DNA of 64,000 bases. It comes from an uncultured Bacilli bacterium (GTDB lineage Bacteria > Bacillota_I > Bacilli_A > RF39 > UBA660). Made by a program: the position numbers and the translations under genes. Where the stretch lies: NCBI GenBank assembly GCA_934090935.1, contig CAKOKD010000003.1, forward strand, positions 92,604 to 156,603, written 5' to 3'. Below the pieces are notes generated by a model, which was not told the origin of the DNA, did no database searches, and saw nothing but the letters and a program-made list of their open reading frames with translations. Positions 39,784 to 43,006 of the stretch are shown one piece after another (the first letter of the stretch is position 1; every line of letters begins with the position of its first letter).

Positions 39784-40704
39784 ATGCAAGAAATTATTAA
39801 TAAAATAATACAACAAAATCAAAATTTATTTAGAGAAAATTCAACAGTAAGTAAAATTAATGTTGGATTTACCAATACTTTATATAGTGTTAATGATTCT
39901 TTTATTATCAAAATATGTACTGATTTAAATAATGAACCTAAATTCAATAAAGAAATAGAATTTTATAATGCAAATAACAATAATGATTTAATACCAAAGT
40001 TATATTATGCTAACACTGATAAAGCTGATATTCCATTTTTCTATGAAATATTAGAAAAAATTAATGGAGTTTCATTATATGATGTTTGGCATACTTTTAA
40101 CGAAGAACAACGAGAAGACATTATTAAACAATTATGTGAAGCAATGAAACAATTTCATAGTAATAAAGGGCAAAGTTATGATTGGGTAAAAAGAACTAGC
40201 TATTTATTTATAAATTCGTATAACAAAGCAAAAGAATTGAATTTACTTACTAGCGAGGAACAAGAATTGTTAGAAAGTGCTTATTCAAAATTTGATGGAT
40301 ACTTACAATCTGATGAATTTGTTTTAATCCATAATGATTTGCACTTTGATAATGTATTTTATGATAATGGAAAAATAAAATTAATTGATTTTGAAAGATC
40401 AATATATGCACCAAGAGATTTTGAATTAGATATTCTTTATAGAATGATCAGAAAACCTTGGAAGTTTGCAAGTGAAGAAAATGAGCGATATACAAAACTA
40501 GAAGATTATGAAAATATAATGTCTTATATTGAAAAATATTATCCAGAATTAATACATATTGATAATTTATATCAAAGACTTGCAATATATGATATTGTTT
40601 ATTTCTTGAAACAATATGTTAATGCACCACAATATGATGAATTAAAACAAGATGTATTAAATGCAGCCAAGATTGTTGTAGGAAATCAAAAAGTAAAATT
40701 ATAG
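39784..40704 (+). CDS. aminoglycoside/choline-kinase (APH) family phosphotransferase
   Basis: Brenner motif HNDLHFDNVFYDNGKIKLIDFE (catalytic HxDxxxxN ... D). 306 aa. Confidence 0.65.
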   Translation: MQEIINKIIQQNQNLFRENSTVSKINVGFTNTLYSVNDSFIIKICTDLNNEPKFNKEIEFYNANNNNDLIPKLYYANTDKADIPFFYEILEKINGVSLYDVWHTFNEEQREDIIKQLCEAMKQFHSNKGQSYDWVKRTSYLFINSYNKAKELNLLTSEEQELLESAYSKFDGYLQSDEFVLIHNDLHFDNVFYDNGKIKLIDFERSIYAPRDFELDILYRMIRKPWKFASEENERYTKLEDYENIMSYIEKYYPELIHIDNLYQRLAIYDIVYFLKQYVNAPQYDELKQDVLNAAKIVVGNQKVKL

Positions 40705-40717
40705 GAAGTGATGATTA

Positions 40718-41245
40718 ATGGATAGTTTTGTATGTAAAATTGCTACTCGAGATGAAATTATAAAAAGAATGAACTATTTAATAGAAACTCATCCTAACAA
40801 TAATGTATGGATAGAGGCAAAAGAAAATGCTCTTAAAGGATTTGATGAACAAAGTAAAATAATGTATATAGGCGTTCTTAATGATGAAATAATTTGTGAA
40901 GCAACCACTTATATAAAAGAATCCGCATTCATAGGAGATGTAAAAGAACCAGAAGGCTTATTAAGTAAAACTATGGCATATTTTAGTGGTTTTAGAACAA
41001 ATAAAGAGTACGAAGGTAAAGGTTATTTTGGTAAATTGTATAACTTTATGGAAGATGATTTAAAAAAAAGAGGATATACTGAATTTTGTTTAGGGGTTAA
41101 ACCTCGTAATGTTAGAAATATGGAAATATACTTTCATTTAGGATTTAGAGAATTTATTAAATCAATTATTGAATATGAACCAGTAAAAAATAACAAATCT
41201 AAAACAGAATTAGTGGTTATAAACTATTTTAAAAAGAAGATATAG
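40718..41245 (+). CDS. GNAT-family N-acetyltransferase (putative)
   Basis: 175 aa. EYEGKGYFGKL (motif A, Q/RxxGxG/A-like). Immediately downstream of the APH-family gene. Confidence 0.5.
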   Translation: MDSFVCKIATRDEIIKRMNYLIETHPNNNVWIEAKENALKGFDEQSKIMYIGVLNDEIICEATTYIKESAFIGDVKEPEGLLSKTMAYFSGFRTNKEYEGKGYFGKLYNFMEDDLKKRGYTEFCLGVKPRNVRNMEIYFHLGFREFIKSIIEYEPVKNNKSKTELVVINYFKKKI

Positions 41246-41529
41246 CAAAATAAAAATCGTGGCACGTTATGAACTTACAAAGTAATTTTGTAAGTGGCGA
41301 TAGATTTTTATAATTTATTTTCATTACGAAGTTTTGAAAATAAACAATTGCAATTTATTACAATTCAAAAAAACATAATTTGCTTGAACGAATTGTTCTT
41401 GCTTAATTATGTTTTAGGGTTTCAAAAGGGAATATTCCCTTTGCACACACCTATTGGCTCTGCCAATAGAGAAGTGTGTTTTATCTATTGGAAATAAATA
41501 TTACTGACAAGCGAATGCTTGTCTTTTTA

Positions 41530-42324
41530 TATGTCTATATCTCTATCATTATAATAACCTAATCCATGATAAGAAGTTATTTCTTCAACTACATTTTCAT
41601 AATACATAGGCTTTTTTGTCCTTTTTCCGTGTATATAATCACCTTTATATAGTTCATTAGTCATAATATGGTTTATAGTAGAATCTCGCCAATTTGTCTT
41701 TCCTAATACCTTTTCTTCATTATATATGTTTGCGATTAATTGATAACTTTTTCCCTCTAAATATAAATCATAAATTCTTACTATAATATCTTTTGTTAAA
41801 GGATCTGGTATTAACTTTTTATTTTCTCTTTTAAAGCCTAATGGTGGTTAATTTGGAATATGTCCAGCCTTTATTGCTCCGACCATTCCAAACTTTGTTC
41901 TTTCCGAACATTTTTCAATTTCATTTTGTGAAACACTTGTCATTATTCTCATAACCATTCTACCATTTGAAGTAGTTGTATTTGATTCATCAGCCATACA
42001 ATCAATATCACAATCATTTTCATTAACAAATCTCATAAGTTTTTCAATATCGTAGACACTTCTTGTTAATCTATCTAGTTTAAAAGCAACTATAACATTT
42101 ATTTTCTTATCTTTAACATCTCTCATCATTTCTTGATATGCTGGTCTTTTATCATCTTTTGCACTTATTCCCTCATCAGTATATACTTTATAAATTTCAT
42201 AGCCTTTAAAATTACAAAATTCAGTTAATCGTTTTTCTTGTTCTGGTAAACTAAATCCCTCTCTTGCTTGATCGAGTGTACTAATTCTTTTATAAATACC
42301 TGCAATTTTCTTTTCTTCATTCAT
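41530..42324 (-). pseudogene. large serine recombinase remnant: resolvase catalytic domain + recombinase domain, interrupted by an in-frame TAA (complement of 41848..41850) and C-terminally truncated
   Basis: N-terminal domain YKRISTLDQ (Ser nucleophile) ...[13 protein letters not shown]. After the stop the same frame continues PPLGFKRENKKLIPDPLTKDIIVRIYDLYLEGKSYQLIANIYNEE...NWRDSTINHIMTNELYKGDY. Total about 265 aa, versus about 450-550 for intact family members. Confidence 0.65.
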
Positions 42325-42557
42325 AATATCAACTTCTCTTTCTACAAAAAAGAGGAGTCAAAAATACTAGTAGTTCAAACTAATACTCTTGACTCCTCAA
42401 TAATACTAATATAATAAGTTTTTAAATGTTTTCGTTTACTTTTAACCATAGAAGTACCTCGCTTTCTAATAAAAGACTAGATACTGCTTGCTTTTATTGG
42501 TTTACTATATTATACTTTTATCTTTGATTTGTCAATTCCTTATTTAGGGAATGAATA

Positions 42558-42875
42558 TTAGTTTGATTTAATATATTCTAATAAATCTTTAAACTTAATC
42601 TTTTTATCATGGCCATTAATATAAATATCATCACATTCATCAAACATTAAATAATCAATTTTATTAATAGTTATTATGTGGGGTTTTACATAAGCAATAT
42701 TTGTTCCTTTAATATTTCTAATATTACCATTTTTGTATGTCGGTTTAGCATAAGCAAACTTACATATCATATCGACTTTCTTTCTTAATTCCTCACTTAT
42801 ATTTAATTCTTTAGTTTCTATTGTTAACATATAATCACTCTCACTTTCTTTCTTAAATAACAAAAAAACTAACAT
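42558..42875 (-). CDS. hypothetical protein
   Basis: 105-aa ORF between the recombinase remnant and the tRNA. Confidence 0.3.
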   Translation of the reverse strand: MLVFLLFKKESESDYMLTIETKELNISEELRKKVDMICKFAYAKPTYKNGNIRNIKGTNIAYVKPHIITINKIDYLMFDECDDIYINGHDKKIKFKDLLEYIKSN

Positions 42876-42931
42876 TTCTGTTAGTAATTTATTACTCTCG
42901 AAACTTTAAAAGTTCGAGTTTCCTATCAATA

Positions 42932-43006
42932 TGGTGTCCTAGATGAGAATCGAACTCATATCTAAGCTTTAGGAGAGCCTTGTACTATCCATTGTACTAC
43001 CAGGAC
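42932..43006 (-). tRNA. tRNA-Arg (anticodon CCU), CCA-encoded
   Basis: Reverse complement GTCCTGG-TA-GTAC..GTAC-A-AGGCT-CTCCTAA-AGCTT-AGAT-ATGAG-TTCGATT-CTCAT-CTAGGAC-A-CCA. Cloverleaf with 7-bp acceptor stem (one G-U), TPsiC GTTCGATTC. Anticodon loop CU-CCU-AA. Confidence 0.8.

Follow-up and report, generated by a model that had tools for sequence, protein, structure and literature searches.

The 64,000-nucleotide stretch of an uncultured Bacilli genome analysed here (the window; contig CAKOKD010000003.1, positions 92,604 to 156,603) contains a single tRNA gene, tRNA-Arg(CCU), according to both ARAGORN and Rfam. A preliminary description, made from the sequence alone, had listed next to this gene a small open reading frame (ORF) at its 3' side, a serine-recombinase gene with an in-frame TAA, and two genes for a kinase of the APH family and a GNAT acetyltransferase, and had taken the whole for a decayed integrative element that delivered accessory cargo at a tRNA gene. 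All of these components are indeed present, and the kinase and acetyltransferase genes are the only plus-strand genes between ~17.7 and 53 kb. The general reading also holds, as the genes lie between recognisable attachment sites (attL and attR) and the slot that the two cargo genes occupy is variable in sister elements. Our analysis makes it very probable that the locus (Table 1) is a dead copy of a small integrative mobilizable element (IME), normally ~5 kb long, of uncultured low-GC gut Bacilli, whose relatives encode a large serine recombinase (LSR) that targets the 3' ends of tRNA and transfer-messenger RNA (tmRNA) genes.

Table 1. Features of the element remnant and of the tRNA gene beside it (window coordinates)
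Feature	Coordinates	Strand	Evidence
tRNA-Arg(CCU), intact	42932..43006	-	ARAGORN; Rfam tRNA 63.5 bits
Whole element remnant, 3,332 bp	39600..42931	-	First base past CCA to last base of attR P arm
Element left end, P' arm of attL: TATTGATAGGAAACTCGAAC..., then inverted repeat CTCGAAC/GTTTCGAG	42905..42931	-	Sequence comparison
Hairpin ACTAACAGAAATGTTAGT and T run (probable terminator)	42862..42885	-	Read from sequence; kept in L002/L003
90-aa element gene	42558..42830	-	Homologues mostly 90 aa
Recombinase leader	42352..42535	-	Promoter-like site 42535..42507, mini-ORF 42449..42375, terminator 42398..42352
Recombinase pseudogene, catalytic Resolvase domain, codons 1-158	41850..42324	-	Pfam PF00239, E 5e-33
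Recombinase pseudogene, Recombinase domain, codons 160-247	41584..41846	-	PF07508, E 2e-14; L002 alignment ends at 41584
Deletion junction 1, GAAAATGTAGTTGAA	41584..41598	-	Pairwise alignment to L002 1351-1427 and 3630-3694
C-terminus remnant of Mob_Pre relaxase (EITSYHGLGYYNDRDIDI, then stop)	41527..41583	-	Translation of L002 2544-3800
Conserved non-coding segment downstream of relaxase gene	41298..41526		91-94% identical in L001-L004, L011, L012, L029
Cargo gene 2, GNAT acetyltransferase, 175 aa	40718..41245	+	PF00583, E 4e-5
Cargo gene 1, APH-family kinase, 306 aa	39784..40704	+	PF01636, E 1e-19
Conserved element right end	39600..39764	-	P-arm alignment; nhmmer

Both ends of the element are fixed by comparison with its sisters (loci are cited below by L numbers and proteins by P numbers). 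Sister homology begins at the base next to the encoded CCA end of tRNA-Arg(CCU) and stops at 39600, 184 bp left of the kinase start (blastn against L001-L004, L011-L013 and L091; 94-97% identical). The CCA end is the integration point and forms the B arm of attL, and the left-end arm that follows it in the window is conserved in this position, next to the CCA, at many other tRNA and tmRNA genes. The attL junction (42931/42932) reads ...GAGTTCGATTCTCATCTAGGACACCA / TATTGATAGGAAACTCGAAC..., and the attR junction, which ends at 39600, reads ...GGAAAAGTTATTCGACTTCTTCTTCACAGGCACCA / TAAATGCATG.... Both fit the consensus arms of the family, so that both sites survive in the window copy. The P arm of attR, made up of the final 29-35 nt of the element (39634..39600, GGAAAAGTTATTCGACTTCTTCTTCACAGGCACCA), resembles the T-arm and acceptor strand of a tRNA followed by NCCA; the 29-nt right-end sequence is identical in nine other loci, including L001-L004, L011-L013 and L029. 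The two junctions have in common CACCATA (7 bp) and a degenerate T-arm look-alike. An unoccupied site would be expected to read tRNA-Arg CCA joined to TAAATGCATGATAC....

The preliminary description had proposed to define the island by looking at about 36-39 kb for a direct repeat of the tRNA 3' end. By sister-element comparison the island does not extend that far, and no long repeat exists: a second copy of the 24-nt tRNA 3' end was not found with up to three mismatches allowed, and a general repeat search gave nothing relevant. Such a repeat would be in the style of tyrosine integrases, but the element is bounded by sites of the serine-recombinase type with a common core of 5-7 bp. Indeed, the sole recombinase within 39600..42931 is of the serine family, and none of the six ORFs scanned there has a Phage_integrase domain. 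GC content is ~20-28% across the locus and not distinct from the surroundings.

In every species with an HD protein 82-86% identical, the CCA of tRNA-Arg(CCU) is followed either by a family member with a recombinase (L098, L102, L106) or by a left-end remnant (L099-L101, L103-L105, L107, L120). In more distant relatives a plain terminator or unrelated sequence stands at this tRNA (L108, L111, L113, L115-L117, L121-L124). The search for an empty tRNA-Arg site, also proposed at the outset, was in this way successful in part: distant relatives are empty, but close relatives all carry a member or a remnant, and no truly empty site was retrieved from a conspecific genome. By these comparisons, the tRNA-Arg(CCU) site is an insertion hotspot. 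Between attR and a conserved 660-aa gene, at 36.6-39.6 kb of the window, lie four ORFs without counterpart in these relatives; no further element ends are recognisable in this interval.

The kinase and acetyltransferase in the cargo slot

The two cargo genes lie in an interval (39765..41297) that is flanked by two segments conserved in all sister copies. Elsewhere the same slot holds a 164-aa ORF (L001, L003, L004), a pair of 96- and 286-aa ORFs (L002) or a different 164-aa ORF (L024). We considered whether the sisters' 164-aa ORF might be a diverged GNAT gene or a core gene and rejected both ideas: it has no GNAT similarity and no Pfam domain, and the L001 and L024 versions are unlike each other. 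Judging from the copies compared, the slot is simply variable. One relative, L091 (96.5% nucleotide identity), has the same APH and GNAT pair and retains Mob_Pre and the C-terminal zinc-ribbon half of the recombinase. Related species share the synteny of the HD gene and tRNA-Arg(CCU) as well as five upstream genes, but lack APH and GNAT there, and the pair is not part of a synteny conserved in all relatives. In the window lineage, on the other hand, the remnant is present in every long contig retrieved. The kinase and acetyltransferase genes are intact cargo and by now a fixed accessory pair of the species. The acetyltransferase gene is clearly under purifying selection, as judged from its ratio of nonsynonymous to synonymous substitution rates (dN/dS) of 0.10 relative to L091/L092.

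What the pair does is harder to say. The likeness to aminoglycoside-modifying pairs noted in the preliminary description stands with regard to an APH(2'')-like fold, but no cut-off of a curated resistance family is reached. We weighed the possibility that the element delivered genuine aminoglycoside resistance, with the two genes as a split counterpart of AAC(6')-APH(2''). The kinase is well modelled by AlphaFold (predicted local distance difference test score, pLDDT, 88.5), and its top 50 Foldseek matches are all APH(2'') enzymes (E 1e-11 to 4e-10). Its catalytic motifs are intact and fall in invariant columns, namely K43, HNDLHFDN at 183-190 (HxDxxxxN) and IDFE at 201-204 with the metal-binding D202. 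The acetyltransferase gene lies 13 bp downstream, the pair is carried on a mobile element, and a kinase 80% identical to that of the window accompanies a second APH gene and a GNAT gene on an element with a tyrosine integrase and Mob_Pre. All this would suit a resistance determinant. However, the same fold matches amount to only 17-20% identity with TM-scores of 0.45-0.66, in a PDB crowded with APH(2'') entries, and by sequence the best PDB match is a hygromycin-B kinase at E 0.0045. The scores against curated models are tiny: for the kinase, 19.2 bits against NCBIfam APH(3') (cut-off 205) and 21.1 bits against APH(4)-Ia (cut-off 725); for the acetyltransferase, which otherwise has only generic GNAT domain matches, 17.3 bits against AAC(6') group E (cut-off 140) and 17.7 bits against AAC(6')-Iad (cut-off 275). 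Moreover, kinase homologues at 72-88% identity are found in ordinary chromosomal contexts beside NUDIX or other GNAT genes. A genuine resistance function is thus unlikely, though less so than the other alternatives discussed here. We read the two genes as encoding a pair of small-molecule-modifying enzymes, whose substrate may possibly be aminoglycoside-like.

Two observations concern the relatives of the kinase. The mobilizable element just mentioned (L096 1676..12388, and L097) encodes a tyrosine integrase, Mob_Pre, AAA_25, HTH and Fic proteins along with the homologue of the window kinase, and it also carries the second APH/choline-kinase-like gene, the GNAT gene and a gene for a 542-aa protein resembling class-I aminoacyl-tRNA synthetases. 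By analogy, this gene set is reminiscent of antibiotic self-protection clusters. In two other homologues, P0187 (481 aa) and P0212 (488 aa), the kinase is fused to a C-terminal domain of ~175 aa with conserved Cys and His, which by eye looks like a transglutaminase or cysteine protease. We had considered APH-GNAT fusions as a possible functional link and dropped the idea, as the C-termini of these two proteins were judged transglutaminase-like and not GNAT. The fusions hint that the kinase family may act on something besides a classical antibiotic.

Targeting of tRNA and tmRNA 3' ends by the element family

The recombinase has 197 genome hits. A scan with it over one genome per species gave 80 loci, which were compared together with metagenome relatives. 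All 80 come from metagenome-assembled genomes of uncultured bacteria of the animal or human gut, most of them labelled Bacilli or Tenericutes (including Firmicutes bacterium CAG:460, Acholeplasma sp. CAG:878, Ca. Faecisoma and Ca. Onthousia). Intact members have the same order of parts: left end with terminator, 90-aa gene, leader with mini-ORF and terminator, LSR gene, small ORF, Mob_Pre (MOBV) relaxase gene, cargo slot and tRNA-like right end. The intact LSR is a protein of 463 aa with Resolvase, Recombinase and Zn_ribbon domains (P0021: PF13408, E 1e-5), and the intact relaxase has 418-432 aa (Mob_Pre, E 6.5e-30). The majority of LSR genes in the family are intact, and complete relatives are mostly 4.9-5.7 kb long. 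The recombinase is less than 31% identical to anything in the plasmid collection. In some members, such as L024 (9974..11866), the recombinase frame is ~157 codons longer (a 630-aa ORF) and takes in the stretch that L002 has as an ORF of its own, of 139 aa; the small ORF that separates the recombinase and relaxase genes may represent a detachable C-terminal extension.

In 58 of 84 loci, a tRNA or tmRNA gene on the same strand ends ~570-650 bp upstream of the LSR start codon and the left arm of the element follows directly after its CCA. Sixteen kinds of RNA genes are represented in this set: tmRNA and the tRNAs for Gly (GCC, TCC, CCC), Leu (CAA, TAG, GAG), Thr (GGT, CGT), Cys, Phe, Ala, Lys (CTT, TTT) and Arg (CCT, TCT). 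A later count of occupied sites adds tRNA-Arg(ACG), which brings the number of tRNA and tmRNA genes used to at least 17. At loci without a called tRNA but with enough sequence, the left arm is preceded by the NCCA of another element's right arm, that is, by a tandem array. Many loci have two or three recombinase genes (L050 has three within 13 kb), and tandem copies of different subfamilies are found in L003 (3242..9036, and 9037 onwards), L012, L015, L042, L046, L050, L062, L076, L083 and L085. From these junctions, each tandem copy appears to have inserted into the tRNA-like right arm of the preceding one.

The use of so many different tRNA genes might have another explanation. If each recombinase lineage were specific to one tRNA gene, as tyrosine integrases are, the variety of targets would reflect nothing but diverged enzymes, and a family spanning 55-98% protein identity, with several distinct att-arm classes, would seem to leave room for this. 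Yet the same element is found at different RNA genes. An element of 4,907 bp, 99.8-99.9% identical over its full length, stands at tRNA-Ala (L022, L023), tRNA-Leu(TAG) (L024, L027) and tRNA-Leu(CAA) (L026) in genomes of different species; another, of 6,980 bp and 99.7% identical, stands at tmRNA (L059) and tRNA-Thr(CGT) (L061). The subfamily of the window copy, with 92-98% identity of the LSR, occurs at tRNA-Arg, tmRNA, tRNA-Lys, tRNA-Leu and one further tRNA. One-to-one specificity is therefore quite improbable.

The targets nevertheless follow a rule. CCA is natively encoded by the tRNA genes of the family genomes, and all occupied genes (77/77) have C72 followed by A73 (59) or U73 (18), whereas only 25 of the 45 CCA-ending tRNA genes left unoccupied in these loci do so (Fisher p = 7.5e-11). 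Never occupied are tRNAs with G73 (Ser, Asp, some Arg) or C73 (His) and those with A, G or U at position 72. Furthermore, attL agrees with attR at N73 in 43 of the 44 pairs (34 A/A, 9 T/T, with one G/A). This match holds even inside one subfamily, in which the right arms end in ...AAAGGGCACCA at A73 targets and in ...AAAGGGCTCCA at tRNA-Gly. As far as sequence comparison goes, it is clear that near-identical elements use many different tRNAs and that the C72/N73 rule holds. Serine recombinases need identical central dinucleotides in both partner sites. Together with the agreement of attL and attR at N73, this is most simply explained if the crossover dinucleotide includes position 73.

The symmetry of the sites points to about the same place. 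By our own reading of the reconstructed attP, both arms contain AAAAGTT: the copy to the left is 33 nt from the CCA end, and the copy to the right, in complement, is 24 nt from it. This places the centre of symmetry between C72 and N73, at a distance of 4.5 nt to the left of the CCA end, or of 3.5 nt if another motif is used. In tRNA genes the AGTT of the T-loop region lies 5 bp nearer to the symmetry centre than the AGTT of attP, a shift reportedly equal to the offset between attB and attP of serine integrases. Downstream of the target little seems to be demanded. In L018, tRNA-Cys and tRNA-Gly are 1 nt apart, and in L017 they are parted by a 4.8-kb element whose right arm abuts the first-base region of tRNA-Gly; this comparison suggests that the half-site downstream of the target is hardly constrained.

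In the mechanism that we propose, the LSR recombines attP with a tRNA or tmRNA gene at its very 3' terminus, so that the element would come to stand right behind the encoded CCA without damage to the RNA gene. C72 together with A73 or U73 appears to make any tRNA-like gene usable, provided that its discriminator equals the one in attP; given this match, the crossover dinucleotide would include position 73 or adjoin it. Each inserted copy would in turn present a new tRNA-like target at its right end, so that copies could accumulate in tandem. In these terms attP would be a degenerate tRNA 3' half with the crossover at position 73. For attB, we lean, by no great margin, towards a site class that has not been described before: the 3' terminus of any CCA-encoding tRNA or tmRNA gene with C72 and an A or U discriminator matching attP. 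That the LSR is the integrase we infer from its being the only recombinase in the 5-kb element.

Several points weigh against these proposals. A requirement for the half-site downstream of the tRNA could not be defined. The attL/attR pair of L089 is mismatched at N73. The dyad centre of the crossover varies by 1 nt with the subfamily (3.5-4.5 nt), so that C72-N73 and N73-C74 are both possible. Relatedness among many of the loci means that the statistics given above overstate independence; one synteny scan, for example, contributed 15 of the occupied sites, which are tRNA-Arg(CCU). It is also conceivable that Mob_Pre proteins, known as 'plasmid recombination enzymes', are the catalyst instead of the LSR. 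As to the cargo, the dN/dS of the kinase relative to L091/L092, 0.52, is based on 35 substitutions and does not show strong constraint.

The gene set of the family is that of an IME and not of a prophage. LSRs are best known as phage integrases, and the nearest solved relatives of this one, although distant, are the integrases of TP901-1 and A118; but that the locus is a prophage remnant, with a phage serine integrase and leftover phage genes, is most improbable, as complete sisters are only 3.6-8.5 kb long, encode a Mob_Pre relaxase and are without detectable phage structural or replication genes.

Decay of the window copy and other features

An IME is marked by an integrase and a relaxase or origin of transfer (oriT) of its own and by having no conjugation pore. 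Relatives fit this description with LSR and Mob_Pre in ~5 kb, but in the window copy the recombinase is dead; no oriT was located. The recombinase frame runs from 42324 to 41527 on the minus strand and has the TAA in frame at codon 159 (41847..41849), between the catalytic and recombinase domains, just as the preliminary description had it. Upstream of the stop, the Resolvase match spans codons 10-155 and includes the nucleophilic serine motif (YKRISTLDQ; R-x-S-T-x-x-Q). In the CcrB model the catalytic domain, the only part matched, scores 99 bits against a cut-off of 900 and stays below equivalog level. Downstream of the stop, the PF07508 match ends at profile position 79 of 102, and the zinc ribbon with its embedded coiled coil, absent from the window copy by Pfam, has been lost by deletion. 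Codon 159 is CAA (Gln) in relatives P0001, P0002 and P0004 (96-98% identical). The TAA is no sequencing error, as it recurs, with the same 158-codon gene call, in three other metagenome assemblies (L005-L007; 99.4-100% identical over 39500..43100).

The label of recombinase remnant, in turn, is correct only as far as codon 247. Compared with L002, the frame departs from the recombinase at ...MYYENVVE and continues as the end of Mob_Pre (...DNVVE EITSY.GLGYYNDRD...IDI and stop), so that the final 19 codons (41583..41527, stop included) are the C-terminus of the relaxase. The junction sequence GAAAATGTAGTTGAA fits both the recombinase gene (ENVVE) and the relaxase gene (DNVVE), that is, microhomology at an in-frame fusion. 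This deletion took away about 2.2 kb, comprising ~360 of the 418 codons of the relaxase gene, a 139-aa ORF and, from the recombinase gene, the half that encodes the zinc ribbon and coiled coil. The repeats YNDRD and YDDRD flank a second deletion, of ~87 bp, and 18 relaxase codons are left in the window. The window gene is accordingly best described, on alignment to its intact relatives, as a recombinase::relaxase fusion pseudogene. The dN/dS of the remnant relative to intact relatives is as low as 0.04-0.08, which implies that most of the divergence arose while the gene was functional and suggests that inactivation was recent.

Other copies of the family have decayed independently. P0005 is a different recombinase::relaxase fusion, the L003 recombinase is frameshifted and L091 has a ~70-bp deletion in the catalytic domain. 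L013, located at tRNA-Leu(CAA) in another genome, has two stops, a TAA at the same CAA codon (L013 10448) and a second one near codon 328. Common descent or recoding as the origin of the L013 TAA was rejected, since this copy is less similar to the window (92% DNA identity) than the copies with CAA and has the second stop; a C>T nonsense mutation that recurred at this codon seems a better account of it than shared ancestry. The shared codon could otherwise hint at a tolerated or programmed stop, but that the TAA is read through in a functional recombinase, or that stop and truncation are an assembly or sequencing artefact, is hardly credible given the three further assemblies of the same lineage, the independent decay of L013, the 2.2-kb deletion, which removes the zinc-ribbon/coiled-coil half even if the stop is read through, and the fact that CAA>TAA is the expected nonsense route at 26% GC. 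The history of the window copy can be summarised as follows. It entered tRNA-Arg(CCU) with the APH(2'')-like kinase and the acetyltransferase in its cargo slot. It then lost mobility through CAA>TAA at recombinase codon 159, and two deletions between short repeats took almost all of the relaxase gene and the part of the recombinase gene that encodes the DNA-binding and coiled-coil half. Excision of this copy could happen only in trans.

The remaining parts of the element are better preserved. Through the hairpin that follows its left end, the element probably provides the tRNA transcript with a terminator. The 90-aa gene is invariably situated between attL and the recombinase gene; the ORF as called is 42558..42875, and the shorter version given in Table 1 is likelier in view of the length of its homologues. 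With 409 homologues, a dN/dS of 0.04-0.10 and an AlphaFold pLDDT of 93, its product is without a Pfam or NCBIfam match and without an informative fold match. We consider it a candidate accessory or directionality factor. The leader of the recombinase gene has a mini-ORF of 24 codons, provided with a ribosome-binding site of its own, and a terminator with a 20-bp stem that lies immediately before the recombinase ATG and whose 5' arm overlaps the mini-ORF end. A mini-ORF of 19-25 codons is equally placed in L002, L003, L012, L021-L028, L058, L074 and L087, and the peptide sequence is not conserved. This arrangement suggests leader-peptide or attenuation control of recombinase expression. The conserved non-coding segment includes a bidirectional terminator-like hairpin at 41506..41523; neither this segment (41298..41526) nor the recombinase leader has an Rfam match at E <= 1.

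Elsewhere in the window, a 61-nt sequence is present twice (38562..38622 and 31788..31848; 79% identical), with TATAAT followed by a run of eight C, upstream of ORFs 38233..38547 and 29601..31772, which lie on the minus strand and are otherwise unrelated. The two ORFs may have a promoter or 5' leader in common, in which the homopolymer tract could allow phase variation. ORF 38233..38547 was considered as a fragment of the neighbouring repeat proteins and rejected, as it has only the 61-nt upstream sequence in common with them and no protein similarity. Two large paralogous genes (723 and 709 aa) on the minus strand at 29601..34497 contain internal repeats of ~1 kb and tracts rich in both Gly and GC (GC reaches 44%, compared with 26% in the genome); their L005 counterparts match the Pfam glycine-rich domain ALK_LTK_GRD. 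A c-di-GMP-I riboswitch (16613..16702, minus strand; Rfam 59.6 bits) lies upstream of minus-strand ORFs of 102 and 719 aa. Finally, an ORF of 2,195 aa (46224..52811, minus strand) heads a conserved five-gene block (2195, 147, 469, 247 and 182 aa) that ends at tRNA-Arg and is syntenic in all related species retrieved; its 469-aa member has a weak Cadherin-like match in L005.

Relation to known integrative elements

Taken alone, the window locus is an ordinary decayed island, and its cargo a caution against calling resistance genes from fold or family alone. The pair is like APH(2'') and AAC(6')-Ie/APH(2'')-Ia in the kinase fold, the complete set of catalytic motifs, the GNAT partner and carriage on a mobile element; it differs from them in its identity of only 17-20%, in scores below curated cut-offs and in having separate genes in the opposite order. 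The family behind the locus is of wider interest. It is abundant and mostly intact in uncultured gut Bacilli, combines many tRNA and tmRNA genes with one enzyme and a testable rule of C72 plus A/U73, and accounts for the tRNA-linked tandem arrays of small elements in the genomes that harbour it. With so simple a rule, the question of what tRNA genes offer to integrases can be approached experimentally.

Among mobilizable elements, the family resembles Tn4451 with its recombinase TnpX and streptococcal IMEs: small, chromosomal, with one LSR and a relaxase, very short end repeats and cargo. Frequent decay and tandem accretion are also features of the serine-recombinase IMEs of Firmicutes. A 2017 review of IMEs (PMC5704250), however, assigns tRNA 3' ends to tyrosine integrases only and has serine-recombinase IMEs inserting inside protein genes or with low specificity, whereas the present family targets the 3' termini of tRNA and tmRNA genes as a class and leaves the gene undisrupted. 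The ssrA islands of Dehalococcoides, with the CcrB-like recombinase DsiB (PMC3146451), are a partial precedent, being mobilizable islands of an LSR that use the 3' part of the tmRNA gene and form tandem arrays downstream of it. They differ in being restricted to ssrA, in their 20-bp direct repeat, in the crossover inferred for the T-loop and in a second, small serine recombinase, DsiA; the present family uses at least 17 RNA genes and a 5-7 bp core at C72-N73-CCA, and has one recombinase together with Mob_Pre.

Insertion at the 3' side with preservation of the gene, a tRNA-like fragment in attP and tandem islands are shared with the tRNA and tmRNA islands of tyrosine integrases (PMC4383910, PMC7192596). 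What sets the present family apart is another enzyme family and chemistry, the use of many tRNAs by one enzyme and a repeat of 5-7 bp instead of tens of base pairs. Surveys of integrative elements (Islander and TIGER; PMC4383910, PMC7192596) regard serine integrases as not known at tRNA genes and ask why tyrosine integrases favour them. The TIGER survey found 14 of 297 serine-integrase elements at tRNA or tmRNA genes, called this use previously unreported and in need of experimental proof, and mentions the small phiRSM recombinase, which is a partial precedent. The searchable literature, which leaves out most subscription journals, yielded no account of a serine recombinase with many tRNA genes as targets, so that this absence is not proof. 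Should the proposed site class be real, one enzyme could enter roughly half of a genome's tRNA genes without damage, and could also enter resident copies, building tandem arrays. Within the literature that could be searched, no earlier serine integrase has been characterised as specifying tRNA genes, and none of either family as targeting many tRNAs generically; this enzyme would be the first on both counts. If confirmed, it would offer a broad-host integration tool for bacteria with CCA-encoding tRNA genes.

The use of many sites with a short core by a single LSR also brings to mind the multi-targeting recombinases, such as TnpX and TndX and those of Durrant et al. 2022 (PMC10083194), a paper in which the term 'tRNA' occurs 0 times. 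The resemblance ends with the nature of the targets. Theirs are loose sites found genome-wide, whereas the sites used here appear to form a structured class, defined by a T-arm, an acceptor strand, C72 and a matching N73.

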